Shown: positions 9,817-62,962, numbered from the stretch's first letter. The stretch is DNA of 64,000 nucleotides from Patescibacteria group bacterium (GCA_030583805.1 CP129476.1:733640-797639), one strand, 5' to 3'. Translations and numbers: made by a program. The notes: a model not told the origin generated them from the letters alone.

Positions 9817-9820
9817 GAAA

Positions 9821-16321: not shown

Positions 16322-16345
16322 ATTGGTGTGGCTTTGCGTGATGCG

Positions 16346-42583: not shown

Positions 42584-42587
42584 AGCG

Positions 42588-43601: not shown

Positions 43602-43716
43602 AGGTAGTAGTTATTCCCCTTTCGGGACTTCGCAGCATGCCGGCGCATGCGGCGGAGCCCCGCGCCCTCCGGAAGAGACCGGAGAGCTGGGGCACGCACG
43701 CGATGGTTTCGCGCGC

Positions 43717-44907
43717 TTAGAACGTGCCGGTCGCGATGAACGTGAGCACGTCGACGTAGTCGTTCGCGGCCGAGGTGATGGCGGAGATCGCCGCTTTCAC
43801 CAAGATGTCGGCCGTGTTGTTCGCCGTGCCGTCGAGTGCTGCCGCGTTCGTCGTAACGATGAACTGGGCGGCTGCGGAGTCGACGCCTCCGACGCGGTTG
43901 CCGCCGTTCGAGGTGCAATCGCCGTTATACGGCGCGACCGCGGTGGCGGAACCGGTGACGACGTTCGTCGCGGTGACGCACAGTCCGTACCCTTCCGTGC
44001 CGGCCACGAGATCGGTCACGCCGCCCGCACCTGCGGTGTAGGTCGTGCCGATCGTATCGCCGCTGGCCGAGGATTCGAGCGCATCGGCCGACCCACTGCC
44101 CTGCACGGTCACCAGCGCGCCGCCGGAGGCGTTGGTGTCGAGATCAAGGCAGATGTGGTTGGTCGCGGTCGAAACGGCTGCGGACGTGAGCGTGCCGAGC
44201 GAGACGGCGTACGGCGTGTTCGATTCCGATCCGCACGAGGATTGGATATCGATGTCGAAGGTGAGCGTCGGGCTGACCGTCGCGGTTACCGTGACCTGAT
44301 CATCGTCCATGATCGAAACCGCGACGCTGGTCGAGTGCGCCGATACGACGCCCATGTCGGTCATGGTGACGTCGACCGTTTGTGAACCGGCAGTGCCGGG
44401 ATTCGTCAGCGTGCCGTCAGCAGCCGTGCCAAGGATCTGGAAATCGATGACAGACGTCGCGGTCGATGACGTATACGAAGCGCTGCATGCCTTCACACGG
44501 AAGATATTGGCCGACGTGTCGACAGCTACGCCGACATCGTTGACGCCCGTCCCACAAGAAACGTCCGAGACTCCGGCGCCTTGCGCAACCGTCGTGACGG
44601 TTCGACCCGTGCCGTCGATGAACACGAAGTCGCTTGTGGCCCAGGTTCCCGAAGCCGAGCTGGTGAAGCCTGCCGGGAAATCGACGGCGATTACATCACT
44701 CGTCGTTGCCGAGCCGCTAAACGTATAGCTCAACGGGAGCGTCAGGCGGATCGTGTGGTTAGACGTGGTCGAGATCTTGAGCCGCGACATCGTATCGCTG
44801 GTCGAAGTAAAGCCGTCTGCGCGCACGGGAGCGAGAGGAAGCACCAATGATGCGACCGTCGCGAGTGCGGCCAGAAAGGCTGTTACTCTATTCAGGATCT
44901 TTTTCAT
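43717..44907 (-). CDS. secreted Ser/Thr/Gly-rich beta-strand protein (396 aa) with C-terminal motif NDYVDVLTFIATGTF
   Basis: Signal peptide MKKILNRVTAFLAALATVASLVLPLAPVRADG. The C-terminal ~200 aa are paralogous to the 258-aa protein (TPYAVSLGTLTSAAVSTATNHICL...; GYGLCV). Confidence 0.6.
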   Translation of the reverse strand: MKKILNRVTAFLAALATVASLVLPLAPVRADGFTSTSDTMSRLKISTTSNHTIRLTLPLSYTFSGSATTSDVIAVDFPAGFTSSASGTWATSDFVFIDGTGRTVTTVAQGAGVSDVSCGTGVNDVGVAVDTSANIFRVKACSASYTSSTATSVIDFQILGTAADGTLTNPGTAGSQTVDVTMTDMGVVSAHSTSVAVSIMDDDQVTVTATVSPTLTFDIDIQSSCGSESNTPYAVSLGTLTSAAVSTATNHICLDLDTNASGGALVTVQGSGSADALESSASGDTIGTTYTAGAGGVTDLVAGTEGYGLCVTATNVVTGSATAVAPYNGDCTSNGGNRVGGVDSAAAQFIVTTNAAALDGTANNTADILVKAAISAITSAANDYVDVLTFIATGTF

Positions 44908-45176
44908 ACGTACGTAATGAATGTTCTCTCAAGTACAATTCGAAGCCGCAATGGCTGCGGAGTCCGCACCTTCCCCTCGATGAACCGAGGAGCGGTGAGT
45001 CCGGCGCTTTCCCCGGCACGTGCAGGGGAAAGAGCGATTCCGCAGAAACGGTAATGCGCGCGGTCACGCGTTACCGTCGACCTTTTAGTTCCGGCCTTAG
45101 TGGCCGGGAGGAGCCTCGAAGCGTTCGGGGCTCTTCCCGGCCCTCCTGCACCGGACGATGCAGGAGAGCGTTCCGT

Positions 45177-45953
45177 TCAATACGTTGCGGTGACCGTGAT
45201 GGTCAGCGTGTCTTGGTAATCGTTATGCGCGGGGGTCACGGACGAGACCGCGGCTTTCGTCAGAAGTTCTCCGAAGGCGTTGGTGACGAAGCCGCTCGAG
45301 AACCAGACCGTCTGGTTGGCCGTCGTGAGGGCGCCGACCGCGTGATTCGTCGTGGTATCGCAGCTGCCGTTGAACGGCGTCGTGGCCGTGAAGCCGTTTT
45401 GGGCGTTCGAGCTGCAGACGCCGTATCCGGCCGTGCCCGCGACGAGCGTCGCCGTGTTCGAAGCGATGACGTCAGCCGGCGTTCCATTCGAGGCAAGACC
45501 CGCGTTCGCATCCCTGATTTGCACCACTTGCCCGCCCGGGGAGTTCGCGCTGACGCGGACGCAGATGCGATTCGAGGCGGTCGTGACGGCGCTGGTCGTT
45601 AGCGTGCCGAGCGGCACCGTATAGGGAGGGCTCGACGAGCTCGTCGCGTCGCAGGCTCCGGACTGCACGGCATAGTTCACGGTCAGCGTGATGTCTTCCC
45701 GCAAGCACTGATAGCCGACGCAAGCGAGATAACTGGCGCTTGAGAGGTCTTCCCCCGTGGGCGAGGACACCTCGGCGATCGTATCTTCGGCGATATAGCT
45801 CGCGGACGTACTGCGTTCTCCGCCGCCAGAGAAGGCGTCGAATGGGATGCGGTAATTTTGAGACGTCATGACCTGTGCGAACGCCAGTGCCGGCCAGAGT
45901 GCCTGGCACGCAATGACGGCGATCGTCGCAAATTGTCGTGTTAAGCGTTTCAT
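45177..45953 (-). CDS. secreted beta-strand protein (258 aa), paralogue of the 396-aa protein C-terminus; ends NDYQDTLTITVTATY
   Basis: Signal peptide MKRLTRQFATIAVIACQALWPALAFAQ. Shared blocks PPYTVPLGTLTTSAVTTASNRICV and GYGVCS. The terminal alternating beta-strand is like pilin/SCPU/TasA-type donor strands. Confidence 0.6.
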   Translation of the reverse strand: MKRLTRQFATIAVIACQALWPALAFAQVMTSQNYRIPFDAFSGGGERSTSASYIAEDTIAEVSSPTGEDLSSASYLACVGYQCLREDITLTVNYAVQSGACDATSSSSPPYTVPLGTLTTSAVTTASNRICVRVSANSPGGQVVQIRDANAGLASNGTPADVIASNTATLVAGTAGYGVCSSNAQNGFTATTPFNGSCDTTTNHAVGALTTANQTVWFSSGFVTNAFGELLTKAAVSSVTPAHNDYQDTLTITVTATY

Positions 45954-45962: not shown

Positions 45963-48900
45963 TTATGGCGTTTGTTCAGTCGTCGTTCCTGATTCCGTCT
46001 CCGGCGGAGGCTCCGGCGCTGCAGGCGGCTCTTCGACAACGGGTTCCGGCGGCGGGGGCTCTTCTTCTGGAGGCGTTTCCGGCGTACCGCTGCCCGATTC
46101 CGTCACTCCTCCCGTCGGAGGCGTGCCCGTGCCGGATTCCGTCGGTTCATCTTGCGGCGCTTCCTCTTCAACCGCCGCCTGCTCAAGCAGGCCGTCGATC
46201 GGCAAGATCCAGTACGTGAACGGCGTCTCATCGATTGCTCCCTGGGCAAGCTTCAGGATGAACGAACCCTGATGCTTCTCGGACACCCACCAGTTGGAGC
46301 CCGGATTGCCTTCGAAGGTGATCACGATGACCGATTCCTCCGTCACGTGCGGGTTTTCCACCATGATCGCGTCGTACCCTGCGCGGAGCCGCGCCTTGCC
46401 GACAACGCGGTCAGCCGCCGCATCAGCTCGCAACGTCAGTTTTCTCGTGTTCACTTCCTTCGCCTCGATGTGTTCGGCGACGAGATAGCCGTCCGAGGAC
46501 ACGCTCCAGAGGCCGCTGGTCGAGACGATGGCGGAGACGTTGGAGAGCGTCGAGTTCTTGAAGTCGAGGAGGGATTCGCCCGTGATCGACAGCGCACCGC
46601 CTGCGGTCGCTCCCGCGAGCGCGGCCGGGCCGTTCCACCACGAGGGGTTCACGAAGACGGTGATGCGTCCGGTGCCGCTGCCGTTCCAGCCTTCAAGCGC
46701 GATACCGATGACGCGTCCGGCTTCCGCCGCCTTCATACCGACGCCAGGCGTCGAGGACGAGGTGATCGGGTCGCCCGGCTTGATCTCGCCGGATTCGGTA
46801 TTCACCTTGACCGGTACGCGGCCGGCGAGAGCCACGGGCTGGGTACCCGCCGTGCTCTTGCCCGTCAGGAAGCCGGGCTTGGTCGAGATGACGCCGAGGA
46901 GGGTGTTTTCGTAGGCGGCGTCGGACTTCTTCACGCCGTAGCCGTTGGTATTCGCCGCGTCGACCATGACGATGTCGCCGGCGTCGAGGTCCGGTGCCGC
47001 CGGGAACGTTTCGGCGTAGTCGAGGCCGCCGTTCACGGTGAGGGAACCCGCCAAGGCGAGGTCGCCAGCCTGGTTCAGCGAGGCGAGCGTCTGGCCGTTG
47101 TCATTCTTGAAGGTGAGTTGGTAGGCGCTGTCGCTCGTGACGTCGTTGCGGATCGTGATGTTGCGGGTGACGGCGGTGTTCGAAGCGCTGCTCCAAGCGG
47201 AACCGCCGAATTTCAGTGCATACGAGGAGAAGGCGGTGCCCGTCGCCGAGGCGATGTCGAGCGGCTTGAAGGCGAAGTCGTCGGCGAAGATCGAGGACGC
47301 GCCGTCGTTCGTGATCGAGAGGCCGAGGTGGAAGCCAGGGTTCACGAAGATTTCAATCTTGCCTTCTCCGGGACCTTCCCAGTGATCAAGCGCGAAACCG
47401 ACGATCATGCCAGGCTTCGTCGCTTTCATGGCGACGCCTGAAATGGACGACGTCGTGAGCGGGTCGCCCGGACGAATCACGCCATTCGCGGCGGTAACGC
47501 GGGTCGGGACGCGTCCGATCAGGGCCACGGGAGCGGTGGTCGATGAAGAGGCCGTTACACCCTTACCGAAGGATTGGTACGGGTTGGTGGAGATGACACC
47601 GATGATCTTTGCCTCGTACGGAGCGGTCGATTCCGTAAGGATCGACGACGTGTTCGTGGCGTATGTTTCGAGACGCACGCCCGTCAGCGGGTTGAAGAGC
47701 TCGTCCTGGTACGAGATGACCGCGTCGGTGGCGATGAGCAGGGTTCCGGTCGGATACGCTTCTTCCAAGGCGTACCACTCGGCAACGTCGGACGGCGTCG
47801 AGCTGCACTCCCGGAACTCAACGTCGCCAAAACTGTCGGCCGTGTCTTTACAGACGCCAATCGTCGTGTCGCCCGTAGGGTTAATGTCGAACTCGATGTT
47901 GCCTTCGACGTCGAGTGTCGCTCCCGGAGCGGTGCCGCCGATATGTACTTGACCACCCGCGTCGATTGAGAACGGCGTGGAGTCGCTGCCATAGTTGCCG
48001 CCGTCGTCTTCAACACGAAGTGCAAGGCCAGTACCGGCGTAATCGATCTGCAGACCAGCGCCGCTCGCTGCCGTGTTGTTCTGCTCCACGCGCAACACGT
48101 CAGCCGTATGCGTACAGGTGCCGAGCGTGGTGATACAGCCGTCGGAGAATTCACCGACCGCAGCACTCAGCGTCAACACCTGGGCACTGCCGTTGATGGT
48201 GGGCTGACGTACCGCGCGGAAGGTCGAGCCGCCGCTCGTGGTGGTCGTGGTATACGTCGGCTGCTGGTTCAACAAGATCATCGAGCCAGTGCTCATAGCC
48301 GCGGCCGTCGAGATATTTTCGATCAAGAGACCGGCACCGGACGAGATATCATCGAGACTCACGGAAATTGCGTTACCCGTCGTGATGGTCTGGGCCTGGA
48401 GCTGGAGCGAGTTACTGTTTGTGCGCGTGGTCAGGATGTCGAGGTCGGCATTCGGGGTGCTGTCACCGATACCGATTTCTCCGGAAGAATCAATCGTCAG
48501 ACGGGCTGTGTCGGCGGTACCAAGGTGCAGAGAGTTGCTGCCGTGAATCTGGAGCGAGTTGGAAAGGACGCCGGACAAGATATCACCTTCATCACCAATA
48601 CCGATGGATGCGATGAGGCTGCCCGCTTCCGTGTACTCAATCTGGGCGAGCGTGGCGCCGCTGTTAGTGTTGGCGATCCTGAGGGTCGTTCCGGTCGTAT
48701 CGGAAATGTGCAGTTTGCCTGAAGGAGAAGCAGTACCGATACCGACGCTTCCGGAGCTCGCAATGTAAATGCCGGAAGTTTCCGCATGCTGCGGGCCAAT
48801 CTGAATCGCCTGGCCGGAGGAGTAGATCTGCGCACGGCGGCCGTTCGTGTCGCGCCAGCCGAGCTGCAGGATCGACGTGCCGCTCGTGTCGTAGGCGATC

Positions 48901-51900
48901 TTGGCCGAGCCGCCCGAGAGCCACAAATCCTTCCAGCGGCGGTTATAGTCGCCGAGGGAGTAGGTGTTGTCGGCTGACGGCGTGAGGTTGCCGGTGATAC
49001 GAGCGCCGGTCGTGGTGATCACGTGCGTCGTGGAAGCGGAGCCGACGGTCAGGCTGTTGCGAATCGTCGTCGTGCCCGTGGTCGCACCCATCGTGAGGTC
49101 GGTCGCCGCAAAGGCGAATTCAAGCGTTGGCGGGGTCGCAGCGAGCTGGCCGAAGGATGCGCCGATGTCGATTGTGCCGCCGTTCACGGTGAACTCAGTA
49201 GAGCCGAACAAGGTGAAGTTGTCGTCGAGAATTGCCTTCGTCTGTCCCGCCGTGATGAAGTCGATGCGGTTGTCGCCGCCGTTCGCGAAACCGGTGTCCG
49301 GATCATCGATGAAAGCGATCGAGGCGTCGTTGCCGCCGCCGCTGGCGAAGAAGGCGTCGGTGGCGATCCGCGTCGCGGTCGAGCTCACGGTGAACATGCG
49401 GATGCTGTAGTCGCCGGCGGCGTTGGTACGGTTCTGCACCTCGAAGATGTTGCCGGTACCGCCGATGGTATCGCCGATCGTGAGGGCGCCAACGGATGGC
49501 GTGATCGAGATTTCCGGAGAACCCGTGGCGGCGAGATACGCGGAGTTGAGCGGTGCCGATGGCGCGCTGACCCACGTCAGCGTGCCGGAGCCGTTGTTCT
49601 GCAGGAAGGTCGAGGCGCCGCCCTGTGAAGACGGCCAGGAGTACGGCACGTTATTAATCTTCACGAGGTTACCGGACTGGTTGACTTCGAATGTACTTGT
49701 AGCGGTACCAACGGTGAGTTTGTTTGCAGGCGCGCTGTTACCGATACCGACCAGGCCGGTAGGACCAACCATGAACATCGGGGTGCCGCCGACCGTGGCC
49801 TGGATCAGGTTTTGAGCGAAGCCGGCTACCGGCGCGATAGAGAGGGCTGGGAACGGCCAGAATTCGTCGGCATCTTGCGCGATTGTGGCAGAACGCGAAA
49901 GTTCAAAGGCGCGACCGGCAACGATATTGCCTTGGTGATCGATGGTGAAAATGTCGGTGCCGCCAAACGTCGTAACCCGAACCGCGGTCCCATCGTTATC
50001 CACCGTATGTCGGACATGCAGCGTTGCAGTCGGAGCGTTTGAGGAGATAGCGACCGATGTCGCACTGACCGTCAGGTAGCGCTGGCTGTAATCCCCTGCC
50101 GCGGTCGTACGGTTCTGCACTTCGAAGACGTTGCCGGTACCCGAAAGCGTATCGGCAATTGTGAGAGCGCCGACGGACGGCGTAATCGAGATTTCCGGAG
50201 AGCCGGTGGCGGCAAGATACGCCTGGTTCAGATTGCCGCCGCTGGAAACAACAGACCACGAGAGGTTGCCGCTGCCGTCATTCTGCAGCACCGTCGAGCC
50301 GCCGCCCTGCGAGGCCGGCCAGGAGTACGGAACGTTGTTGACCTTGATCAGGTTACCGGCCGCGTTGACTTCGAACGTGCTGGTGGCAGTACCAACCGTC
50401 AGTTTGTTGGCCGGCGAAGTGTTGCCGAGTCCGAGGCGTCCTCCGGTGAGGATGAGCGCGCTGCTACCCGATGAGTCGCCAATGCGGAGCGCGCCGGTTT
50501 CCGCGTGCAGGTAAAGGTCTGTATTTCCCGTGTCCGCATCACCAATGTAACCGCGACGCGTGGAGTTGTTTTGATCGAAGAACGTTATGTAACCAAGGCC
50601 GCTGTTGCCGGTTCCGTTCGATGCCTGAATACGGAACGTCTCTGAAGCGCCTGTGATATGCAAGGGTGCCGACGGCGTGGCCGTGTTAATACCGAGGCGG
50701 TACGCCGTAATGTTGTTGCCAGGGTTGATCAAGACGGCCGTCGAGCTGACGGTGAAGTAGCGTCCATCGAAGTCGCCCGCCGTGGTCGTACGACTCTGAA
50801 CCTCGAAAAGGTTGCCGATGCCGGTTCCCTTATTGATACCGCCCGTAAGCTGGTCGGCGATGGTCAATCCGCCCTGCGTGCCGTTCGCAAACAGTTCTGC
50901 CGTGGAAGTTGAGCTGTTAAACGTTTGAAGCATCGTTGAACTGCCGCCACAGCCCGTACACGTGCCGGTCACCGTCAAATTCGTGATGGTCGTACCGGTC
51001 GAGCTCACGTAGAAGTACCGATGCGTGTAGCCTCCGACTCCGGACGTGTTCTGAATCTCGAAGATGTTTGACGTCGGGGAAACTGCGTCGTCGGCGACGG
51101 TCAAACGTGCGCTCGGCGCATTCGTGCCGATGGCGAGGTTGCCGGCGTTGTTGAGACGCATGCGCTCAACGCTCGTACTCGATCCATTGGCGGTCGTCAT
51201 GAACGTGATGCGTCCAGGCATGTCGTTATTGCCCGGCGTATCATCGACCGACACCTTAATGAAAGCGGCTGGAATGTATTCATCGCCGTCATAGCCCCAC
51301 GACGACCAGTTCAAGATGTCGTCGCCATTCTCAACGACGAGCTCGCTGCCGGATGAGCCGCGCGCCTTCTGCACGACAATCTGGTTGCCGTTGTTGTCCG
51401 TCGAGAACCTTGTCAGGTACACCGAGGTTGACGTGCTTTGAATATCAAGCTTGCCGATTGGATTCGTCGTGCCGATACCGACAAGACCAGAAGGACTGAT
51501 CGATATACCTTGGCTATCACCCAAACTCGGCGTGATTTGAATCTGCTGGCCCGAAGAGTGAATGAGGGCGCGGCGGCCGTTCGTATCACTCCAGCCAAGC
51601 CTCAAGATCGACGTGCCGCTCGTGTCATATGCGATGTTGGCGCTGCCGCCCGAGAGCCACAAATCCTTCCAGCGAAGCGCCGGGTCACCAAGCGTATACG
51701 TATTGTCGGCAGACGGCGTGAGGTTGCCTGTCACGCGCGCGCCGGTCGTTGTCAGCGCGTAGGTGGTCGAAGCACTGCCGATAATCGTCGCGGTCGAGCT
51801 GATCGTGAAGTAGGGGCTCGTGTTAAGGCTGTTTGAGACTTCGAAGAGGTTGTGCGTCGGTGTCGCGACAGAGTCGCGCACGGTCAACGTTGCGGTCGGG

Positions 51901-54900
51901 GTGTAGGAGGATCCGCCGATCAGCACCTTACCGTTCGTCATTACCGCGAACTTCATCGCATTACCGGCAACGTTGTTGGAGTGGACAGAGAAGGCGTGAA
52001 TGTCCGCCGAAGACGTGTTCGCGATGACGGCCAGCGCTTGTCCGCGAGGCGAAGCACCGGCGCCGCTCGTTGTCGTTGCAATCACGCTGTTAGACGCGAC
52101 GACCTGGAATGTGCCGGTGCCGATCGGCAGCGGCGTGACGTAAACCGACGTCGAGCTCACCGTAAAGTAGCGGGACGAATAGTCTCCTGCCGCCGTCGTG
52201 CGATTCTGAACCTCGAAAATATTGCCCGTGCCCGAGAGCGTGTCGGCGATCGTGAGAGCTCCCTGCGTGGAGTTGGTATAGATTTCCGTCGTACCAGTCG
52301 CCGCAAGGTAGGTCGCATTCATCGTCGGCGTGCTGCCCGTCGAGAGCTCCGTGAAGCCCGCTCCGTTGTAGACGTACAGCGCATCTCCCGTGCTATTCCA
52401 CACGATGTCGCCCTCTGCCGTTCCCGTCACCGCCGTCGGGACGCCGGCGAAGGTCGGGATCTGGAGACCCTGGTTCACGGCATGCGCCGGGGCGATGAGG
52501 CGGTTGATGTAGCGCGTCGAGGTCGAAGAAACCGAGAAGAGGCGGTTCGTGAAAGAATCCTGGACTTCGAAGATGTTGTTGGACTGGGCGGCAAAGCCGC
52601 GGAGCTGGAACTGGCTCGTCGTCGAAGCGGAGACGGCAAGCATGCTGCCCGTGACGTCGATGTCGCCTTCGGCATCGAGCTTGAAGCGCAAGGAGCCGTT
52701 GTTGGCGATCGAGAAGAGCGTCTCGTTGCCGGTCGGGGCCGAGGGGTTCACGTAGACCGTGCCGTTCGAGAGGCCGGTACCCTGCGGATCGCCGTTCACG
52801 ACCAGGCTGTTGCGGATCCGGGTCGTGCCGGGGCCGTTCGCGCCCATGATGAGCGTCGTGGCCGCGCCGCCGACTTCCAAGATTGTCGGCGTCGCAGCCA
52901 GGAAGCCGGAAGAGGCGCCGAAGTCGATGACGCCGCCGTTCACGATGAGTTCGGTCGAGCCGAACAGGGTGAAGTTGTCTTCCAGAATGATCTTCGTCTG
53001 TCCGGCCGTGATGAAGTCGATACGGTTGGTGCCGCCGTTCGCGAAACCGGTGTCCGGATCATCGATGAAGGCGACCGAGGCGTCGTTGCCGCCGCCGCTG
53101 GCGAAGAAGACGTCGGAAGCGATCCGCGTACCGGTCGCGCTCACGCTGAACATGCGGATGCTGTAGTCGCCGGCGGCGTTGGTGCGGTCCTGCACCTCGA
53201 AGATGTTGCCGGTGCCGCCGAAGGTGTCGCCGATCGTGAGAGCGCCGACGGACGGCGTGATCGAGAGTTCCGGAGAACCCGTGGCGGCGAGATATGCCTG
53301 GTTGAGGTTGGTGGAACCTCCGGCTGCGGCCCAGGAGAGGTTGCCGTTGCCGTCGTTTTGCAACACTGTCGAGGCGCCGCCCTGAGAGGAAGGCCAGGAG
53401 TACGGGACGTTGTTGATTTTCACGAGGTTTCCTGACTGGTTCACCTCGAACGTGCTGGTCGCGGAACCGACGGTCAGGCGGTTGGCGGGATTCAAGTTAC
53501 CGATTGAAAACTTGTGATCCAGAGCGTTGTTCGTCGCATTGACCAGCGTCGCCGTCGCGCTGACGGAGAAGTACTTCTGCGAAAGATCGCTGTTACCAAT
53601 CTCAAAGATATTGTTGGTCGTGCCTACAAGTGCCGCAGCCGTAAATGTCGCGTTCAAGCTTGTCGGTGTAAGATTGCCGACGCCGAAACGACCATTCTCC
53701 GAGCCCGCAAAGATGGTGCTGAATGCGCCATTTACTATCACGAATTCCGCATTGGAGCCATCGTTGTCACTGTCGAGCTGGAGGATCATGCCACCTTCCC
53801 CATAAATGCCAAAGTTGCCGTCACCCGTGACTTGGATGGTGTTGTCGCTCTCAGCCGTCGCAAGCACGAGCGCGGGGCCGGCGGTGTACGTCGTTCGAAT
53901 CTGGTTTGCAATGGTCGTAGCCGTAGCACTCACGGTGAGATAGCGAGTACTCCAATCACCCGCAGCGGTCGTCCTGTTTTGGATCTCGAAAATGTTACCG
54001 GTACCCGATAGCGTATCGGCGATTGTGAGGGCACCGATTGAGGGCGTGAGCGAAATTTCCGGAGAGCCGGTGGCGGCGAGATATGCCTGGTTGAGGTTGG
54101 TGGAACCTCCGGCTGCGGCCCAGGAGAGGTTGCCGTTGCCGTCATTCTGCAGCACGGTCGAGCTGCCGCCCTGCGAAGCCGGCCAGGAGTACGGGACGTT
54201 GTTGACCTTGATCAGGTTACCGGCCGCGTTGACTTCGAACGTACTGGTAGCAGAGCCGACCGTGAGGCGATTGGCGGGCGCGCTATTGCCGATGCCGACC
54301 AGGCCGGTAGGACCAACCATGAACATCGGGGTGCCGCCGACCGTGGCCTGGATCAGGTTTTGAGCGAAGCCGGCTACCGGCGCGATAGAGAGGGCTGGGA
54401 ACGGCCAGAATTCGTCGGCATCCTGCGCGATCGTGGCAGAACGCGAAAGTTCAAAGGCGCGACCGGCAACGATATTGCCCTGGTGATCGATGGTGAAAAG
54501 GTCCGTGCCGCCAAACGTCGTAACCCGAACCGCGGTCCCATCGTTATCCACCGTATGTCGGACATGCAGCGTTGCAGTCGGAGCGTTTGAGGAGATAGCG
54601 ACCGATGTCGCACTGACCGTCAGGTAGCGCTGGCTGTAATCCCCTGCCGCGGTCGTACGGTTCTGCACTTCGAAGACGTTGCCGGTACCCGAAAGCGTAT
54701 CGGCAATTGTGAGAGCGCCGATCGAAGGGGTAATGGAGATTTCCGGCGAACCGGTGGCGGCGAGATACGCCTGGTTCAGGTTCACGAGACCGTTGGCTGC
54801 AACCCAGCTCAGCGTGCCTGCTCCGTTGTTCTGCAGCACCGTCGAGGCCGCGCCCTGTGAGGACGGCCAGCTGTAGATAACATTGTTAATTTTGCGAATA

Positions 54901-57900
54901 TCACCGCTGAAGTCGACTTCGAACGTGCTGGTGGTGGAGCCGACGGTGAGGCGGTTGGCAGGTGCGCCATTGCCGATACCGACGTTATAGTGCCCCAGGT
55001 TATTGAACGGGTTGATGAGCGTTGACGTCGAACTCACGGTGAAATACCGATAACTGTAATCACCGCCCGTATTCGTACGGTTCTGGATTTCGAAGACGTT
55101 AAATGTCGGAGACGCGACCGTGGATGCAACGCTCAGGAACGCTGAAGGCGTCAGCGTGTTCAAACCGGTCACGCTCGTCGTGTAGAAGTTCAGTCGATTA
55201 GAGCCGCCTGCCTGGATGAAGAGGTTGCCGCCGGAACCGTTCGTACCAATCGTGCCGCTCGTGGCGTCTTGGTTGATGATGAAGCGCAATGTGCCTCCTG
55301 TTGCCAAGTTTACGCGCGATTCCGTGCCGTGGTTGATGACCATGGCCGGAAGACTGCCGGCAATATGGAGAGAGTATTGCGGGTTTTGCGTGCCGATACC
55401 GACGTTTCCAGCCGCATCAATCGTAATACCTTGATTCTGATTGCCGGCACGCAACGTGAGCGGAACCTCTGCCGGCGTCTTGATCAAGCCGCGCAAACCA
55501 TTCGTCGTGTTGAATCCAAGCTGCATGATCGTCGTACCCGACGTGTCGTACGCGATGTTGGCGCTGCCGCCCGAGAGCCACAAATCCTTCCAGCGAAGCG
55601 CCGGATCGCCAAGCGAGTACGTGTTGTCCACGGAAGGCGTAAGATTGCCGGTCACGCGCGCGTTCGCCGTGTTCAGAGCAGACGTGCTGGAAGATGAGCC
55701 GAGCGCCAGGATTCCGCTTTCATCAAGCGTCATGACCGTACCGCCTGCGCCGTTCAGCCAGCTATACGCCTCGCTAGAATCGCCATTTGCATCAACACGG
55801 AAGAAGATCGAATCGTCACTGTAAAGATTGAAACCGTTCTCGCCGATGCCGTAGATCTCGACACCGCCGGCACTGCTCGTAATTGCCACAACCGTTCCAC
55901 CAGCAGGATTCGAGATCGCTAGTGCGCTGCTGATCGAAGCCGACGCCGTGTTAATCAAGGTGTTCGTTGAGCTCACGGTCAAGTATTTCGTGCTCCAATC
56001 CCCCGCCGCATTCGTGCGGTTCTGAATCTCGAAAATGTTGCCAGTGCCTGAGAAGGTGTCGGCAATGGTAAGCGCGCCGATCGACGGCGTGAGGGAGATC
56101 TCGGCGGTGGAAGTCGAGGCGAGATAGGCCTGATTCAGGTTCACGAGACCGTTGGCTGCAACCCAGCTCAGCGTGCCGGCTCCGTTGTTCTGGAGCACCG
56201 TCGAGGCTGCGCCCTGCGAAGAAGGCCAGCTGTAGACGACATTGTTGATCTTCAAGATATTCCCGCTCTCGTCGACTTCGAACGTGCTCGTGCCGGAACC
56301 GACGGTGAGCCGGCTAGCCGGTTTCAGGTTGCCGATGCCGACATTGCCGTTATCCTGAATCACCAACTTTGTACCGGTGGTGCCGCTCGCTTTGTAGAAT
56401 CCGAGAGAATCGGCTGTGCCGTTCAACGAAGACCGGTTCGTCAGCATCATCCATGAGGCGTTGGTGGCTCCGCCCGTCAACCAGAACGCCGCGTCATTAC
56501 CGTCACCGCCGCTCGCACTGAGCTTAATACGTGCCTCGGAACTCGTGACGTACAGGCGGTCGGAAGCGGTCGGCGGAGTCGCGCCCATGCCGACAGTACC
56601 GTTGCCACGGACCGTAAAGGCAGTGTTTGCACCCGCTGTCGTCGTGACGTTCAGTGCCGCATCGCCTGAACTGCTTGTTTGCGTTTGGATGAAAACACCA
56701 TTGCTGTTGGTCACGTTACTGTTGATGAAACGCATTCCGGCGCCGTTTGCCGAAGTATCAAGCACATCGATCTTGTATTGCGAACTTGGAGCCGTCCCCA
56801 CCCCGACATTGCCGGCGAGGTACGTGCTGGTGGAGCTCACCGTGAAGTAGCGGGACGAGTAGTCGCCCGCGGCGTTGGTGCGGTCCTGGATCTCGAAGAT
56901 GTTGCCGGTGCCCGAGAAGGTGTCGGCGATCGTGAGAGCACCGATCGAAGGCGTGAGAGAGATCTCGGCGGTGGAGGTCGAAGCGAGGTAGGCCTGGTTC
57001 AGGTTGACGAGGCCGGACGCGTCGACCCAGGTGAAGTTGCCGGAGCCGTCGTTTCGCAGCACCGAACCGAGCGCGCCCTGGGAGGACGGGAAGCGCGCGG
57101 GGAGACCGTTGATCGTTTCGAAGTTTCCGGAAGAGTTGACGACAAGCGTATTCGTGGTACCCACGATGAAGCGGGCCCCGGCGCCGACCGAGGTCGCGGT
57201 CGCGGAGACCGAGAACAGGCGGTCGGTGATCGTACTCTGCACTTCAAAGATGTTGTTGCTCTGCGAGGCCGCGCCCCGGAACACGAACTGCGCCGTCGAG
57301 GAGGCGGCGGTGGCGAGGAGAGAGCCCGTGTGCGTGATGTCGCCTTCCTTGTCGATCTGGAAGCGGACGCCTCCGTTGTCGGCGATGCCGAAGAGGGTTT
57401 CCGAAGCGGAAGCGTTCGCGGGGTTGATGTAGAGAGAGCCGTTGCCGACGCCCGTACCCTGCGGATCGCCCGTAATGACGAGGTTGCCGTTGGCCGTGGT
57501 ACTCGGGATGTAGGCGGTCGTGGAACCGGAAGAGGTGACGTCGAGATCATCGAGGCGGTCGGCGTTCAGGGCATAGGCGGCGGCGGTGAGACGCTTCCGA
57601 GGGGTCATTTCGGCGTCCGCGCCGATCGTAATGCCGAGAGTCACGACGTTGTTGTCGAAGAGACCGTCCGGAATCTCGTTGTCGCCCGCTTCGCCGAGCT
57701 GGGTCGAGAAGACGCCGTTCGTCACCGTGACGGATTTGGCCGTCGGGGTGCCGCAGGAGCCGCGAGCCGAATACAGACAGGTGCCGTCGCCGTCGTACAG
57801 GCGGAAAATGACGGACAGAGCCCCGTTCGGGACGGGTACGCCGCCCGAATCGGTGACCCGGGCTTGATAGTTCAGGACCTTGGGGACGGAGTTGGCGGCG

Positions 57901-58019
57901 TAGGCTGGCGTCGGGAATGAACCCGACAGCAACGACAAGACCAGGGCGGCCAAAACGGCCGTCCTCGCCGCGCGTTTCAACGCGCGGAGAAGCGTAGCGA
58001 TGTACGCGGTCTCTCTCAT
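45963..58019 (-). CDS. giant secreted repeat protein (about 4,018 aa) built from >8 copies of a ~130-aa module, with an acidic Pro/Glu/Thr-rich C-terminal tail
   Basis: Signal peptide from M16 (MRETAYIATLLRALKRAARTAVLAALVLSLLSGSFPTPAYA). Recurring module ...ANRLTVGSATSTFEVN..GNLIKVNNVPYSWPSSQGGASTVLQNDGNGNLSW...NLNQAYLAATGSPEISITPSVGALTIADTLSGTGNIFEVQNRTTAAGDYS.RYLTVSAT.... Near-identical DNA copies occur inside the gene. Confidence 0.75.
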   Translation of the reverse strand: MRETAYIATLLRALKRAARTAVLAALVLSLLSGSFPTPAYAANSVPKVLNYQARVTDSGGVPVPNGALSVIFRLYDGDGTCLYSARGSCGTPTAKSVTVTNGVFSTQLGEAGDNEIPDGLFDNNVVTLGITIGADAEMTPRKRLTAAAYALNADRLDDLDVTSSGSTTAYIPSTTANGNLVITGDPQGTGVGNGSLYINPANASASETLFGIADNGGVRFQIDKEGDITHTGSLLATAASSTAQFVFRGAASQSNNIFEVQSTITDRLFSVSATATSVGAGARFIVGTTNTLVVNSSGNFETINGLPARFPSSQGALGSVLRNDGSGNFTWVDASGLVNLNQAYLASTSTAEISLTPSIGALTIADTFSGTGNIFEIQDRTNAAGDYSSRYFTVSSTSTYLAGNVGVGTAPSSQYKIDVLDTSANGAGMRFINSNVTNSNGVFIQTQTSSSGDAALNVTTTAGANTAFTVRGNGTVGMGATPPTASDRLYVTSSEARIKLSASGGDGNDAAFWLTGGATNASWMMLTNRSSLNGTADSLGFYKASGTTGTKLVIQDNGNVGIGNLKPASRLTVGSGTSTFEVDESGNILKINNVVYSWPSSQGAASTVLQNNGAGTLSWVAANGLVNLNQAYLASTSTAEISLTPSIGALTIADTFSGTGNIFEIQNRTNAAGDWSTKYLTVSSTNTLINTASASISSALAISNPAGGTVVAITSSAGGVEIYGIGENGFNLYSDDSIFFRVDANGDSSEAYSWLNGAGGTVMTLDESGILALGSSSSTSALNTANARVTGNLTPSVDNTYSLGDPALRWKDLWLSGGSANIAYDTSGTTIMQLGFNTTNGLRGLIKTPAEVPLTLRAGNQNQGITIDAAGNVGIGTQNPQYSLHIAGSLPAMVINHGTESRVNLATGGTLRFIINQDATSGTIGTNGSGGNLFIQAGGSNRLNFYTTSVTGLNTLTPSAFLSVASTVASPTFNVFEIQNRTNTGGDYSYRYFTVSSTSTLINPFNNLGHYNVGIGNGAPANRLTVGSTTSTFEVDFSGDIRKINNVIYSWPSSQGAASTVLQNNGAGTLSWVAANGLVNLNQAYLAATGSPEISITPSIGALTIADTLSGTGNVFEVQNRTTAAGDYSQRYLTVSATSVAISSNAPTATLHVRHTVDNDGTAVRVTTFGGTDLFTIDHQGNIVAGRAFELSRSATIAQDADEFWPFPALSIAPVAGFAQNLIQATVGGTPMFMVGPTGLVGIGNSAPANRLTVGSATSTFEVNAAGNLIKVNNVPYSWPASQGGSSTVLQNDGNGNLSWAAAGGSTNLNQAYLAATGSPEISLTPSIGALTIADTLSGTGNIFEIQNRTTAAGDWSTRYLTVSATATTIANQIRTTYTAGPALVLATAESDNTIQVTGDGNFGIYGEGGMILQLDSDNDGSNAEFVIVNGAFSTIFAGSENGRFGVGNLTPTSLNATFTAAALVGTTNNIFEIGNSDLSQKYFSVSATATLVNATNNALDHKFSIGNLNPANRLTVGSATSTFEVNQSGNLVKINNVPYSWPSSQGGASTVLQNDGNGNLSWAAAGGSTNLNQAYLAATGSPELSITPSVGALTIGDTFGGTGNIFEVQDRTNAAGDYSIRMFSVSATGTRIASDVFFASGGGNDASVAFIDDPDTGFANGGTNRIDFITAGQTKIILEDNFTLFGSTELIVNGGVIDFGASSGFLAATPTILEVGGAATTLIMGANGPGTTRIRNSLVVNGDPQGTGLSNGTVYVNPSAPTGNETLFSIANNGSLRFKLDAEGDIDVTGSMLAVSASTTSQFQLRGFAAQSNNIFEVQDSFTNRLFSVSSTSTRYINRLIAPAHAVNQGLQIPTFAGVPTAVTGTAEGDIVWNSTGDALYVYNGAGFTELSTGSTPTMNATYLAATGTTEIYTNSTQGALTIADTLSGTGNIFEVQNRTTAAGDYSSRYFTVSSTSVYVTPLPIGTGTFQVVASNSVIATTTSGAGASPRGQALAVIANTSSADIHAFSVHSNNVAGNAMKFAVMTNGKVLIGGSSYTPTATLTVRDSVATPTHNLFEVSNSLNTSPYFTISSTATIIGSASTTYALTTTGARVTGNLTPSADNTYTLGDPALRWKDLWLSGGSANIAYDTSGTSILRLGWSDTNGRRALIHSSGQQIQITPSLGDSQGISISPSGLVGIGTTNPIGKLDIQSTSTSVYLTRFSTDNNGNQIVVQKARGSSGSELVVENGDDILNWSSWGYDGDEYIPAAFIKVSVDDTPGNNDMPGRITFMTTANGSSTSVERMRLNNAGNLAIGTNAPSARLTVADDAVSPTSNIFEIQNTSGVGGYTHRYFYVSSTGTTITNLTVTGTCTGCGGSSTMLQTFNSSTSTAELFANGTQGGLTIADQLTGGINKGTGIGNLFEVQSRTTTAGDFDGRYFTVSSTAVLINPGNNITAYRLGINTATPSAPLHITGASETFRIQASNGTGNSGLGYITFFDQNNSTRRGYIGDADTGNTDLYLHAETGALRIGDSSGSSALILTGGRLGLGNTSPANKLTVGTATSTFEVNAAGNLIKVNNVPYSWPASQGGGSTVLQNDGSGNLSWSVVSSGGNLNQAYLAATGSPEISITPSVGALTIADTLSGTGNVFEVQNRTTAAGDYSQRYLTVSATSVAISSNAPTATLHVRHTVDNDGTAVRVTTFGGTDIFTIDHQGNIVAGRAFELSRSATIAQDADEFWPFPALSIAPVAGFAQNLIQATVGGTPMFMVGPTGLVGIGNSAPANKLTVGTATSTFEVNQSGNLVKINNVPYSWPSSQGGASTFLQNNGSGTLTWVSAPSAPLNSAYLAATGSPEISITPSVGALTIGDTIGGTGNIFEVQNRTNAAGDYSIRMFTVSSTATRIATDAFFASGGGNDASIAFIDDPDTGFANGGDNRIDFITAGQTKAILDDNFTLFGSTEFTVNGGTIDIGASFGQLAATPPTLEFAFAATDLTMGATTGTTTIRNSLTVGSASTTHVITTTGARITGNLTPSADNTYSLGDYNRRWKDLWLSGGSAKIAYDTSGTSILQLGWRDTNGRRAQIYSSGQAIQIGPQHAETSGIYIASSGSVGIGTASPSGKLHISDTTGTTLRIANTNSGATLAQIEYTEAGSLIASIGIGDEGDILSGVLSNSLQIHGSNSLHLGTADTARLTIDSSGEIGIGDSTPNADLDILTTRTNSNSLQLQAQTITTGNAISVSLDDISSGAGLLIENISTAAAMSTGSMILLNQQPTYTTTTTSGGSTFRAVRQPTINGSAQVLTLSAAVGEFSDGCITTLGTCTHTADVLRVEQNNTAASGAGLQIDYAGTGLALRVEDDGGNYGSDSTPFSIDAGGQVHIGGTAPGATLDVEGNIEFDINPTGDTTIGVCKDTADSFGDVEFRECSSTPSDVAEWYALEEAYPTGTLLIATDAVISYQDELFNPLTGVRLETYATNTSSILTESTAPYEAKIIGVISTNPYQSFGKGVTASSSTTAPVALIGRVPTRVTAANGVIRPGDPLTTSSISGVAMKATKPGMIVGFALDHWEGPGEGKIEIFVNPGFHLGLSITNDGASSIFADDFAFKPLDIASATGTAFSSYALKFGGSAWSSASNTAVTRNITIRNDVTSDSAYQLTFKNDNGQTLASLNQAGDLALAGSLTVNGGLDYAETFPAAPDLDAGDIVMVDAANTNGYGVKKSDAAYENTLLGVISTKPGFLTGKSTAGTQPVALAGRVPVKVNTESGEIKPGDPITSSSTPGVGMKAAEAGRVIGIALEGWNGSGTGRITVFVNPSWWNGPAALAGATAGGALSITGESLLDFKNSTLSNVSAIVSTSGLWSVSSDGYLVAEHIEAKEVNTRKLTLRADAAADRVVGKARLRAGYDAIMVENPHVTEESVIVITFEGNPGSNWWVSEKHQGSFILKLAQGAIDETPFTYWILPIDGLLEQAAVEEEAPQDEPTESGTGTPPTGGVTESGSGTPETPPEEEPPPPEPVVEEPPAAPEPPPETESGTTTEQTP
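49560..50230. repeat. intragenic near-identical direct repeat, copy A (~670 bp, ≥95% identical to copy B)
   Basis: Directly aligned by eye with 54110-54780. For example ...ggatcaggttttgagcgaagccggctaccggcgcgatagagagggctgggaacggccagaattcgtcggcatc... matches over hundreds of bp. The listed ORFs 49812..50042 and 54360..54590 translate almost identically. Confidence 0.8.
54110..54780. repeat. intragenic near-identical direct repeat, copy B
   Basis: See copy A. The offset is about 4.55 kb. Further diverged copies lie near 48.9, 51.6, 53.2 and 55.5 kb. Confidence 0.8.
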
Positions 58020-58106
58020 GTCGTTTTCGGGTGTTTTCACCCGGTTCGGTTCCCTGCCAGGCAAGGCGCCGAACCGGATGCCGGAGCGTTGGCTCCGGAC
58101 TCCGGC

Positions 58107-61100
58107 TTATTCGGGACGTTTCTCGCGCATGGGAATGTCTCGACTGACCACGCCGGCCTCGCCGCCCTTCTTCGTCAGATCAAGCTCATTCGTCTTCGTG
58201 GGCTCGTACCCGGGCTTTTCCACCGTGATGAAGTACTTGCTGCTTCCAACCAGGAAGTTGTAGCGGCCCTTGCTGTCAGCGATACGCGATTCAAGCGTTT
58301 TGTTGTATTGCGTTTCGATGATGCGTGCCACCGCGAACGGAATCGGTCTCTTCGTATGCTCGTCGTAGATGATTCCCCAGTTTTTTGGCCTGGGCGTACG
58401 CGCCAACCGGCGGAAGAGCAGGTAGAGAACGAGCTGCGCGACGACGAGTATATATAGGTATAGGTGTCCGTAGAGCAGCGCGGCGATAAGAGTCATGACG
58501 ACGCTCGAGAATGCCAGCACGTTTTGGACGCGGCGGCCGAGTTCTTCCAGGAACAGCCGGCGCGTGGTTTTGATCATTTCGATCGGATCAAGCGGGACGT
58601 TGGCGGTAATGATTCCGCCCTCGCTGCTCACGACGATCGATTCTCCGTGATACAGATCGAGGAATTGCGCGTCTTCCTTGCGTCCTGTCAGGTATTTTGT
58701 CGGGAAGACATACCCGGGCTTGGTGACTTCAAGGCGGTACTCGCCCGGTTCCACGATGAACGCGTAGCGTCCCTGCTTGTCCGTCACGGCCGTGCGCACG
58801 AGGCGGTTGGTCGTCGTGCGGTAGAGGCGGATAGAGGCCAGGTCGACCGGGAGTTTCGTAAGCGCGTTGTAGACCGTGCCGTATCCCTTGCGCTTCCTGC
58901 GGCCGATCAGCAGGAGCGGCTGCGTCAGGAGGAAGTAGAGGTAGCTCACGATGCTTGTCGCCTGAACGGCCGTGGCGACGACAGCTGTCGTTACGGCGGC
59001 GGCGGCCGGCACGAGGAACTGCGTCGTGGTCGTTTCGACGCGAGGGTCTCTGATGACCTCGTTCGTGAGGATCCTCGTGATGTACTCGCCTTGCGCACCG
59101 AGCGCCTTGGCGATGTTCGCGATGTTTTCCGTGACGGGCGCGCCCGGCACATAGACCTCGGTCACGGACGGCGGCACCGCAATCATCTCGAAGGACGCGT
59201 TCACGACTTCCGTCGCGAGATTGATCGATGCGCTCTCGTACGTGCGATAACCGTCGCGCGTCGCCTGAATGCGGTATTCGCCCGGAGGCGCCATGAAGGC
59301 GTACGTGCCGGCTCCGTTCGTCACGAACGGATTGGCCTGCTGGTACGGCAGCGCATCCCAGTCGATCCAGCTGCCAACGCGTTTTTGCAACTTGACGCTG
59401 ACGCCGGAGAGCGGGACTTGCTGGTCTTCTTGCGCATGCGTGATCACGCCGAGTGGCTCGACGCGGACCCTGATCGCGGCCGTCGCCGTTGCGCCGTCAT
59501 CAAAGATGGCGGTGATCGTTCCCGTGACGGGACCGATCGCAGACGGCGATGTAATGTCGGCGACGTAGCCTTCTTCCGGCACTGACAAAGCCGTGCGTTC
59601 AAGCAGGTACGAGCCGGAAGCGAGGTTGAGGGTGAGCGTCGTGACGTTCCCTGTTACCGCGGCGATCGGAACAAGAACGGTCATCGAGCGGTTCGGCAGA
59701 ATGCGATATTCCCCGCTCGCGTTCTTGTGGAGCTCAAGCGTGCGGCTGAGCGCGAATGCCCGGACGAGGTTCGCGTTGAGCGCATGCGTCGGCGTCGGCG
59801 CGGCGCAGTCGACGGAGCAGCTGAGATAATCCTCGTTTGCATCGCAGATCGCGTTTCCGCAAGAAGGCGGAGGTGCCGCGCAGTCGGCGGGGCAGCTGAG
59901 ATAGTTTTCACCGGCGTCGCAAATTGCGTTTCCGCAGACGGGCGCGGGCGCCGTGCAGTCGGCAGGGCAGCTGAGGTAGTTTTCTCCCGCGTCGCAAATT
60001 GCGTTTCCGCAAGAAGGCGGCGGACCGGACGGAGTACCGGATGCCTGAGCGGGGCCCGAGAAGTTTCCGGAAGTATCCCTGGCGAAGATCGAGTAGTAGT
60101 ACGTCGTTCCGTTGACCAGGCCCGTGTCGTTATAGTTCTGGCCGCTGCCCGTGTAGATCGCCGTCCCCTGTCCTGACGTGGCCGGATATCCCGTAACGGA
60201 GCGTTGAATCTGAACGTTGGAGAAATCCACGTCGCCCGGATTCGTCCAGCTGAGCGCGTTAACGGAATCGCCGGCCATCACCGTGAAGTTGGAAACGGGG
60301 CCTGGCGGCACGGTATCGAACGGCGTGCCGCTGCCGATGGCACCCGACGAGAAGTTGCCGGAATTGTCGTATGCGAACGCCGTGTAGTAGTACGTCGTGC
60401 CGTTCACGAGTCCGGTATCGGTCATCGACGTGCCGATTCCGTCATAGACGTTCGTGCCGGCTGTCGGGCTTGCCGGATGAGCCGTCGTTGAACGCTGGAT
60501 CCTGACGCCGGCGAAGTCCGCGTCACCCGGATTCGTCCAGCTGAGCGCGTTCTGCGCATTACCCGGAGTCACGTTCAAGCTGCTGACGTTCGAAGGCGGC
60601 GTGCTGTCGGCAAGCGTCGTAAACGTCTGGTCGGTCGACGTCGCGCCGTTAAACATCGCGTCGGCCGAGCTCACGCTGAAGTGGTACAGCGTTCCCGCTG
60701 CCAATCCGTTCAACGTGATTTGGTGATTGGCGACCAAGCTTCCGCTCGAAACAACCGCGCCGTAGGAATCGGTGAGGCCATAACGCACTCTCGAGTCTGC
60801 AAGTTCATCCGTCGCCCAGTTAACGCGCGCGGACGTCTGCGTGATCGCGTCCGTGAAAATATTTGAAATCGTCGGAGGAACCGTATCCGCCGTCGTGAAG
60901 GTGAAGTCCCCTGATGATGCAGTGTTGTTGGAAGCGTCCTTCGACGTCGCGCGGAAGTGGTATGTCGTGCTGGGGCTCAAGCCGGAAAGATTCACGGTGT
61001 GCGCATTCGTCATCGTGGCATTCGACGCGTTGCTTCCATACGAAGCCGTGAGACCGTAATCAACGAGCGCGTCGGCGTCCTCGTTCGTGTCCCACGTAAT

Positions 61101-62886: not shown

Positions 62887-62962
62887 TGGTGGACCAATGG
62901 AGATTCGAACTCCAGACCTCTGCAATGCGAATGCAGCGCTCTACCAACTGAGCTATTGGCCC
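62887..62962 (-). tRNA. tRNA-Ala (anticodon CGC)
   Basis: The reverse complement gives gggccaa-tagctcagttggtagagc-gctgca-ttCGCat-tgcag-...ggttcgaatctcc-attggtcc-a-CCA. G3:U70 is present. Confidence 0.9.

Follow-up and report, generated by a model that had tools for sequence, protein, structure and literature searches.

A giant modular gene of a Patescibacteria bacterium that probably encodes a secreted fibre related to phage tail fibres and Bdellovibrio MAT fibres

A 64,000-nucleotide stretch of the genome of a Patescibacteria group bacterium (GCA_030583805.1, CP129476.1:733640-797639; the whole stretch is referred to below as the window) carries an uninterrupted 12.1-kb open reading frame (ORF) of 4,033 codons on the minus strand, at 45963..58064. 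It appears probable that this is a chromosomal gene of Patescibacteria (candidate phyla radiation, CPR) for a secreted, very long fibre of the kind represented by phage tail fibres and the mosaic adhesive trimer (MAT) fibres of Bdellovibrio, constructed from modules that recombine with one another. It is proposed that a Sec signal peptide exports the protein and that a β-rich N-terminal domain of ~130 amino acids (aa) would, by analogy with MAT fibres, hold the fibre on the cell surface. A shaft of ~3,200 aa bearing the capping-loop motifs of trimeric β-helical fibres would presumably trimerise, and two C-terminal domains resembling Peptidase_G2 (G2-like domains) would nucleate trimer folding and then possibly cleave themselves. 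A 427-bp tract that includes a whole module (module E) would have been copied between positions 4.5 kb apart, with its endpoints in flanking A modules, and over longer times the same kind of recombination would alter the number and kind of modules. From lifestyle and analogy, the role of the fibre is most likely attachment to, or recognition of, the host cell by an episymbiont.

The reading frame, its N-terminal domain and its shaft

The original prediction from this DNA, that it contains a giant ORF of ~4,000 aa, was borne out. The frame is counted here from a TTG codon (residue 1 in the numbering used throughout) and closes with TAA at 45963-45965; the true start is likely to be the first ATG, at 58019, where the signal peptide opens, which would give a product of 4,018 aa. 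A Pfam scan of the whole protein returned no match, and an exact look-up of the protein returned no matching record. The parts of the gene are as follows; the relatives L001 and P0150 named there are complete genes of 2,082 and 2,865 aa, respectively, the former from the Patescibacteria metagenome-assembled genome (MAG) JBAZZB01.

45963..58064, minus strand: giant ORF, 4,033 codons from TTG, probable ATG start at 58019
57897..58019, minus strand: Sec-type signal peptide, aa 16-56 (MRETAY...LSGSFPTPAYA/AN), read from the translation
57495..57896, minus strand: N-terminal β-rich domain, aa 57-190 (PKVLNYQARVTD...EMTPRKRL...), with a sub-cutoff match to NCBIfam Bdello_MAT_N
47814..57494, minus strand: predicted fibre shaft of ~3,230 aa (aa 191-3417), a G/A/S/T/N-rich mosaic of at least five kinds of repeated module
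47325..47813, minus strand: putative G2-like chaperone domain 1, aa 3418-3580, with D-V-A-E at aa 3426-3429 (47778-47789)
46611..47039, minus strand: putative G2-like chaperone domain 2, aa 3676-3818, with D-Y-A-E at aa 3682-3685 (47010-47021)
46110..46610, minus strand: conserved C-terminal extension, aa 3819-3985, kept in L001 and P0150 and absent from phage versions
45966..46109, minus strand: low-complexity tail, Pro/Glu/Thr-rich by composition, aa 3986-4033

The N-terminal region was aligned for 20 sequences (the window protein, the L001 gene and 18 database homologues), and all of the homologues possess a hydrophobic N-terminus ahead of the conserved domain. The sole consistent NCBIfam match was to Bdello_MAT_N, which was detected in 16 of the 20 sequences (best E=1.6e-9) and, in the giant protein itself, scored 24.7-30.6 bits against a cutoff of 60 (best E=2.6e-7, profile positions 8-79 of 162). 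The MAT family is defined by a signal peptide directly followed by a conserved β-rich N-terminal domain of ~130 aa (PMC10769870), and the N-terminal domain of the giant protein appears to be distantly related to that of the Bdellovibrio proteins.

Behind this domain lies the shaft, the following modules of which are referred to by letter; module E is described with the near-identical tract below.

54585..54998, minus strand: module A, reference copy (capping loop-TFEV-YSWPSSQG-LNQAYLA-GALTIAD-NVFEVQNRT (also NIFEVQNRT)-RYLTVS)
56820-57176, 55950-56357, 53901-54314, 53109-53525, 50037-50450 and 49353-49766, minus strand: module A, other full copies
52125-52382 and 50715-50987, minus strand: module A, partial copies
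51033..51782, minus strand: module B, reference copy of three (TGNLTPSxDNTYxLGDxxxRWKDLWLSGG plus two capping-loop units)
54975-55703 and 48315-49052, minus strand: module B, other copies
49035..49382 and 52785-53132, minus strand: module C (DDPDTGF...IDFITAGQTK...TIRNSL), two copies
52137..52808, minus strand: segment that follows the N-terminal domain, recurring mid-gene at aa 1753-1976 (first copy aa 194-416, 56817-57485)

When a profile of module B, built from its three copies (alignment A3), was compared with the PDB, it matched four distinct sequences, all of them crystal structures of Bdellovibrio MAT fibres (8OND/Bd2133, E=4.8e-13; 8OML/Bd1334, 1.4e-9; 8OJN/Bd3182, 1.3e-5; 8ON4, 1.6e-3), and the match was also seen with a single module B sequence as query. 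The aligned stretches are capping-loop units; capping loops (consensus V-G-G/N-pi-x-x-P-x-x-x-L) are a hallmark of the trimeric β-helical MAT fibres (Caulton et al., 2024, PMC10769870), and 12 motifs of this type (VGIGxxxPxxxLxV) occur in the giant protein. The N-terminal half of module A, from the capping loop through ...GxLSW, was found in 1,319 cluster representatives in a library of 1.84 billion proteins; many of the carriers in this representative search measure 2-6 kaa and have as many as 32 copies, and the same half module is also present in P0145, a protein that terminates in an S74 domain. These similarities indicate that at least part of the shaft is homologous to the β-helices of MAT and tail fibres, and a trimeric architecture seems likely by the same homology. 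Scaling from Bd2133, in which 370 aa span 142 Å, would give a fibre of ~120 nm, as an estimate only.

The C-terminal G2-like domains

A homology search with aa 3380-3900 yielded 484 relatives joined to very different N-terminal parts, and those named to a taxon all belong to Patescibacteria except for single proteins labelled Heimdallarchaeota and Acetothermia. A profile of 59 C-terminal homologues matches gp12, the pre-neck appendage protein of phage phi29 (6QZ9, E=1.8e-7; 3GQH, 1.8e-5; 3SUC, 3.1e-4), and the alignment to 3GQH, the released chaperone, starts at its first residue, D692 of 'DFAEYFES'. Mature gp12* of phi29 ends at residue 691 (PMC6542822). The D-x-A-E motif of the family, which is retained in both window domains and in which the D, A and E are each at least 90% conserved among the 59 homologues, aligns with the gp12 cleavage site S691/D692 and with Glu695; the uncleaved catalytic-site mutant 3SUC reads DFAQ at this position. 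Against the Pfam Peptidase_G2 model (PF11962), window domain 2 scored 15.8 bits at a cutoff of 25 (E=0.0097, profile positions 8-101 of 228). Membership in the G2 family is proposed by transitive homology only, because the window domain falls below this cutoff while homologue P0023 (36.5 bits) and the phage protein L051 (26.6 bits) pass it.

The AF2 model of aa 3420-3900 (pLDDT 84) is all-β, and a Foldseek search with it aligned 3SUC over 207 columns (E=3e-3, probability 1.0, root-mean-square deviation 6.5 Å); the top PDB matches were trimeric phage decoration proteins, with head-fibre base proteins also related. In BFVD, the Foldseek matches were to phage 'preneck appendage' proteins (~1e-9), Mtd_N-bearing proteins and tail-fibre-like proteins, with E-values down to 1e-10.

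The duplicated VALxGRVP...PGDP..SS..GV.MKA region that the original prediction had reported is present, with GRVP at aa 3517 and aa 3748, and its reading as a phage tail-fibre or intramolecular-chaperone type of domain was right in kind, as the gp12 profile match and the phage homologues indicate. The family is of the phi29 gp12/Peptidase_G2 type and not Peptidase_S74, for which a search had been suggested: the C-terminal pieces gave no PF13884 match at a threshold as loose as E<=10, and there is no SDxxxK motif near the C-terminus, the sole SD...K lying in the shaft at aa 1492. The better conserved of the two copies is domain 2, which is kept in L001 and P0150.

The same domain is encoded in at least 455 IMG/VR stretches. 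It ends the protein in 79 of the 80 examined, which finish 48-60 residues after the GRVP motif, and D.AE is found upstream in 78 of them; complete phage ORFs with the domain are 241-1,222 aa long, some with an N-terminal Mtd_N or BppL_N domain. Bacterial homologues continue for a median of 188 residues beyond the domain (n=120), and in the giant protein ~215 conserved residues follow domain 2, which is therefore not terminal as in gp12. The C-terminal domains most likely nucleate trimer folding, by analogy with gp12, and are predicted to be of a type that may then cut itself off; cleavage and release are uncertain, because the domains are duplicated and non-terminal.

A possibility that carries real weight, although the balance is judged to lie against it, is that the G2-like domains are permanent structural parts, either a trimerisation knot or a distal host-binding tip, that are kept together with the C-terminal extension. 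The non-terminal position in bacteria and the conservation of the 215-aa extension here are what such a part would show, phage decoration proteins and head-fibre proteins have lasting trimeric bases of the same fold (8PKH, 8HDT, 6QYY, 5WK1; PMC6542822), and a tandem duplication is hard to understand if copy 1 cuts off everything downstream. A permanent role does not, however, account readily for a strongly conserved D-x-A-E that aligns with both the cleavage site and the catalytic Glu of phi29, nor for the strictly C-terminal position of the phage domain, which is that expected of a removable chaperone.

Several points weigh against the interpretation of the gene as a fibre of the MAT and tail-fibre kind. 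The N-terminal MAT match reaches 30.6 bits where the NCBIfam curated cutoff is 60, the module A profile found no solved relative by sequence in the PDB, and the one argument for a trimeric β-helix is the sequence homology of module B to MAT fibres, because no usable model of the shaft was obtained (a monomer AF2 prediction of shaft modules A and E, aa 1011-1300, for which internal copies served as the alignment, reached a pLDDT of 55 and was not used for fold searches). At the other end, the G2-like domains of the window fail to reach the Pfam cutoff, they are duplicated and followed by the conserved residues just described, unlike the phage versions, and copy 1 of L001 is degenerate (DFGE, no GRVP). 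The copy counts and order of the modules in the window are as assembled, being taken from the assembly sequence alone, and surface display, host binding and trimerisation are suggested by analogy.

Internal repeats, recombination and the integrity of the assembly

Self-comparison of the gene confirmed that internal DNA repeats exist far beyond chance, 27 off-diagonal alignments being returned by blastn of the 12.1 kb against itself, the top one of 1,055 bp at 83.5% identity (E=0). Tandem Repeats Finder gave no hits, its period limit being shorter than the 681-1,359 nt at which the units are spaced. The earlier description of blocks of 400-700 bp at >=95% identity holds for one pair of 427 bp (98.8%), whereas the remaining copies are 65-83% identical at the DNA level; the range that had been aligned for it, 49560-50230 against 54110-54780, is 91% identical with 2 gap columns. 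The diverged copies that it listed are real, but they fall into two unrelated module families rather than one, those near 48.9, 51.6 and 55.5 kb being the RWKDLW module (module B) and those near 53.2 and 56.1 kb the YSWPSSQG/LNQAYL module (module A). Likewise, recurrence of the modules more than eight times holds only if partial copies are counted, since the main module is present in seven full and two partial copies. YSWP[SA]SQG occurs 6 times, LN[QS]AYLA 7 times, GALTIAD-type motifs 9 times and NIFEVQN-type motifs 15 times. Module A copies are 41-79% identical in aa sequence to the reference copy (alignment A4), and the module C pair is 82-83% identical in DNA and up to 87% in protein. The mid-gene segment with which the shaft appears to restart is up to 71% identical to its first copy by self-blastp, and 70.5% in DNA (52516-52809 against 57193-57486).

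The near-identical pair is the only one of its kind, and its two copies, which lie at an offset of 4,548 nt, differ by five mismatches over 427 bp.

54295..54721, minus strand: tract copy A, ~aa 1116-1257, the end of a module A and the whole of an E module (SVAISSNAPTATLHVRH...AQDADEFWPFPAL...MFMVGPTGLVGIGN)
49747..50173, minus strand: tract copy B, ~aa 2632-2773

The tract extends from the tail of the preceding module A through the entire E module and ends in the capping loop of the next module; exact runs of 128, 47 and 217 bp lie within it, the last being the longest exact repeat in the gene. Module E, recognised by AQDADEFWPFPAL, is present in these two copies in the giant protein and once in each of the relatives P0150 and P0130. 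With the copies in register, six codon positions differ, five of them third positions, and one residue is changed. Third positions differ by 4% within the tract, by 35% in the 20 codons directly upstream, where 19 of the 20 residues are nevertheless identical, and by 42-45% further out. The tract looks like the product of recent gene conversion or unequal recombination with endpoints in A-module homology, since third-position divergence is low inside it and high in flanks that are conserved in protein; uniform selection and an old duplication were rejected as its origin, as neither fits the third-position pattern. The expectation that repeats of this layout invite recombination is thereby borne out by a conversion-like tract embedded in diverged copies, and the DNA identity of 65-83% between modules is proposed to be what lets them recombine with one another.

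It is much less likely that the repeats serve a programmed switching system, such as phase variation through site-specific inversion, a diversity-generating retroelement (DGR) or cassette recombination between paralogues, and this explanation is given little credence. It could draw on the four of five tract mismatches that are an A in copy B, and on a related genome in which two fibre paralogues in opposite orientation split the genes that flank the window's gene. A DGR target was considered on account of the first of these and was rejected: most of the changes fall at third positions and are synonymous, with a single residue altered, whereas the template and variable repeats of a DGR differ at adenines in first and second codon positions, and the scanned window ORFs included no reverse transcriptase. 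Nor was a recombinase found among these ORFs. Inverted repeats in 44-63 kb are only at chance level (71-78% complementarity), with no sign of invertible elements, the window holds no second fibre gene, and no strain-level variants of the giant gene were found. Members of 3,490, 2,109 and 1,232 aa in a 90%-identity cluster of the family were examined as candidates for such variation and proved to be 5'-truncated fragments.

Gene conversion or unequal recombination among modules would, in the longer term, be expected to change module number and kind, and therefore to leave relatives that keep their termini and differ greatly in shaft length. Eight related loci were collected, seven from 185,579 species genomes and one from JGI metagenome contigs, of which only L001 is complete; the closest come from Patescibacteria and Minisyncoccota MAGs. 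IMG/VR held no close relative of the giant gene, and the JGI metagenome contigs held only the one. Searches with pieces of the protein gave relatives of up to ~1.7 times the query length, and the giant ones came from the representative search and from locus scans. L001 is 73% identical to the window protein at the N-terminus and 61% at the C-terminus, and its shaft has only three LNQAYL modules, one RWKDLW module and four capping loops; the five genes that follow it are the same as in the window, at 66-84% identity. The exhaustive representative search added the complete relatives P0150 and P0153 (2,189 aa), both of which carry shaft segments not seen in the window. A comparison of module counts across relatives, as had been suggested, thus reveals wide variation in number and kind, since L001, P0150 and P0153 share both termini with the window protein of 4,033 aa but differ in their shafts.

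Some further observations concern the members of this family. Proteins of 2-6 kaa are common among them. One of 3,894 aa (P0152), with 27 module stretches on a 1.11-Mb Patescibacteria contig, is recorded at NCBI as 'MerR family DNA-binding transcriptional regulator, partial', an evident mis-annotation. In the more distant P0297/P0155 cluster, repeats like the N-terminal half of module A are combined with one FDYAE...ALVGRVPVKV domain and a long C-terminal extension, and a repetitive propeller-like insert ahead of the chaperone domain suggests exchangeable 'tips' as in MAT fibres. Patescibacteria-type fibre genes with window-like neighbours are also found on the contigs of L002, L004, L005 and L006, which were deposited under 'uncultured Gammaproteobacteria' MAGs and have probably been mis-binned. 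Contig JBAZZB010000002.1 bears two fibre paralogues, L001 and L003, ~150 kb apart on opposite strands; L003, truncated where the contig stops, adjoins the upstream neighbour of the window's gene (up1320), and L001 adjoins the downstream neighbours (d256...TPR). This arrangement is one of paralogy and rearrangement within the fibre family, and the division of the neighbours suggests a duplication or inversion between fibre genes in one lineage.

The same division is the main reason why mis-assembly is kept as a live rival, for in the window both sets of neighbours flank one gene of twice the size. It is considered unlikely that the 12-kb ORF, or the number and order of its modules, is partly artefactual, with repeats joined, expanded or reordered, or with two paralogous fibre genes fused. 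Points in favour of an artefact are the restart of the shaft at aa 1753, where the segment behind the N-terminal domain is repeated, the exact repeats of 128 and 217 bp, which exceed the k-mers usual in short-read assembly, and the short members of the 90% cluster, which are truncated fragments. Seven of the eight related loci, moreover, stop at contig edges inside the gene, in keeping with the original view of the repeat layout as a source of assembly fragility. On the other side, the frame is open over the whole 12.1 kb. Each tract copy is set in its own diverged flanks on both sides, so that nothing has collapsed there, and exact repeats elsewhere in the gene are 74 bp at most, so that most junctions are unique. 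The upstream gene also adjoins the fibre gene in L002, L003 and L005, and the N-terminus in the window is nearer to that of L001 (73%) than to that of L003 (60%), which fits a single L001-related gene. Comparable sizes occur elsewhere in the family, including the 3,894-aa protein on its 1.1-Mb contig.

Genomic context and comparison with known systems

The window is chromosomal, as indicated by rpoC and rpoB (12.4-19.8 kb), ftsK, a class II aminoacyl-tRNA synthetase gene, ychF and seven tRNA genes. The giant gene lies between an upstream gene and four genes for secreted proteins, the first of which starts 9 nt past its stop codon.

58107..62141, minus strand: upstream gene, 1,344 aa, with fn3, Pur_ac_phosph_N-like and CarboxypepD_reg domains
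~58075-58105: hairpin (CCGGAG...CTCCGG) between the 1,344-aa gene and the start of the giant gene
41609..45953, minus strand: four downstream secreted-protein genes (258, 396, 337 and 336 aa)

Homologues of the 1,344-aa protein are those that adjoin the fibre genes of L002, L003 and L005 (68-73% identity). The order of the four downstream genes, which form two paralogous pairs (~38-41% identity), is kept downstream of L001. The 337- and 336-aa proteins have a C-terminal transmembrane helix, and the latter weakly matches the peptidoglycan-binding domain of WxL-interacting proteins (E=0.0012). The downstream genes may represent a Csc/WxL-like surface complex tied to the fibre. The giant gene and its neighbours may form a surface-structure operon, for which a sigma-70-like site seen only upstream of the 1,344-aa gene is weak evidence. 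The second-longest ORF of the window, of 1,802 aa at 14282-19690 on the plus strand, has no Pfam match and is rich in Arg, Ala, Glu and Asp; it was considered as a possible paralogue and rejected as an antisense shadow of rpoC (12410-16321, minus strand) and rpoB (16346-19756, minus strand) and no gene. The seven tRNA genes (Ile-GAT, Phe-GAA, Pro-TGG, Gly-TCC, Ala-GGC, Ala-CGC and Arg-CCT) are scattered over 62887-63189 (minus strand), 5945-9922 and 37478-37553, two of them just upstream of the fibre locus.

This context bears on the suggestion that the gene encodes the tail fibre of a phage or prophage and not a cellular surface protein, a suggestion to which the phage tail-fibre type of the C-terminal domain and shaft motifs lends some colour. 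It is nonetheless regarded as highly improbable, given the N-terminal Sec signal peptide, housekeeping genes elsewhere in the window, no phage structural genes among the scanned window ORFs, synteny with secreted-protein genes that is kept in another genome, and no close relative in IMG/VR.

Little is known of the means by which ultra-small episymbionts locate their hosts and stay attached to them. Cultivated Saccharibacteria need type IV pili and several adhesins in order to grow epibiotically (PMC10633639, PMC12206443), and the giant gene suggests a second kind of device, a tail-fibre-derived fibre related to those with which Bdellovibrio recognises its prey. A literature search found no paper on MAT-like or G2-capped fibres in Patescibacteria, which is not proof that none exists. 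Such a device is widespread (~1,300 cluster representatives share the module), modular and recombination-prone. Metagenome assemblies usually break or truncate the genes of the family, which are also poorly annotated, as with the one labelled 'MerR family regulator'; long reads are needed before the size and copy number of these genes in MAGs can be relied upon. A bolder and rather doubtful extension is that Patescibacteria possess their own branch of the MAT/tail-fibre 'chimeric fibre' system, with phi29-type rather than S74-type caps and a reach (~50 to 120 nm or more) reshaped by recombination. If this were true, modules exchanged by recombination, both inside a gene and with its fibre paralogues, would reshape module make-up, and fibre genes would be a main determinant of the host to which an episymbiont can attach.

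Among characterised systems, the MAT fibres of Bdellovibrio bacteriovorus (Bd2133, Bd1334, Bd3182; PMC10769870) offer the fullest set of parallels: a signal peptide and then a β-rich N-terminal domain that appears to be distantly related, recurring capping loops in a long shaft whose module B has its only PDB relatives among them, a chimeric modular plan with conserved N-termini and exchangeable distal parts, and an owner that lives on other cells. The giant protein differs in being, at 4,033 aa, about four times longer than the ~1,000-aa MAT fibres, in ending in two G2-type domains and an extension where MAT fibres end in S74 or a single adhesive tip, and in module kinds A, C and E, which are without counterpart in the solved MAT structures; its N-terminal match to the family is below the cutoff, and, the Patescibacteria host being monoderm-like, the anchoring partner must differ from that of MAT. 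With phi29 gp12 (Peptidase_G2; 3GQH, 3SUC, 6QZ9) it shares homology over the first ~55 residues of the C-terminal domain, including D-x-A-E, and an all-β body behind a β-helical fibre, the phi29 chaperone body being β-stranded (PMC4690869); unlike in gp12, only the N-terminal half of the Pfam model is matched and the domain is duplicated, with ~215 aa after it.

The S74 chaperones of T5 pb1, the K1F endosialidase and the S74-group MATs follow the same logic of a C-terminal trimerising chaperone behind a triple β-helix, and the N-terminal half of module A recurs in the S74-terminated P0145, although the giant protein itself has neither an S74 Pfam match nor a C-terminal SDxxxK. Tail-fibre and receptor-binding proteins of uncultured phages (IMG/VR, BFVD) contain the same domain at 30-46% identity, with D.AE and [VIL]ALxGRVP, but are 241-1,222 aa long with the domain terminal, and in the eight that were scanned neither a signal peptide nor a MAT_N-like domain was seen. 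Finally, the giant genes of Omnitrophota, one example of giant repetitive surface proteins in further ultra-small or predatory bacteria, can be likened to the present gene by description only, as very long, repetitive genes of host-dependent bacteria; according to bioRxiv 10.1101/2023.11.21.568195, fragmented assemblies can obscure the existence of such genes.

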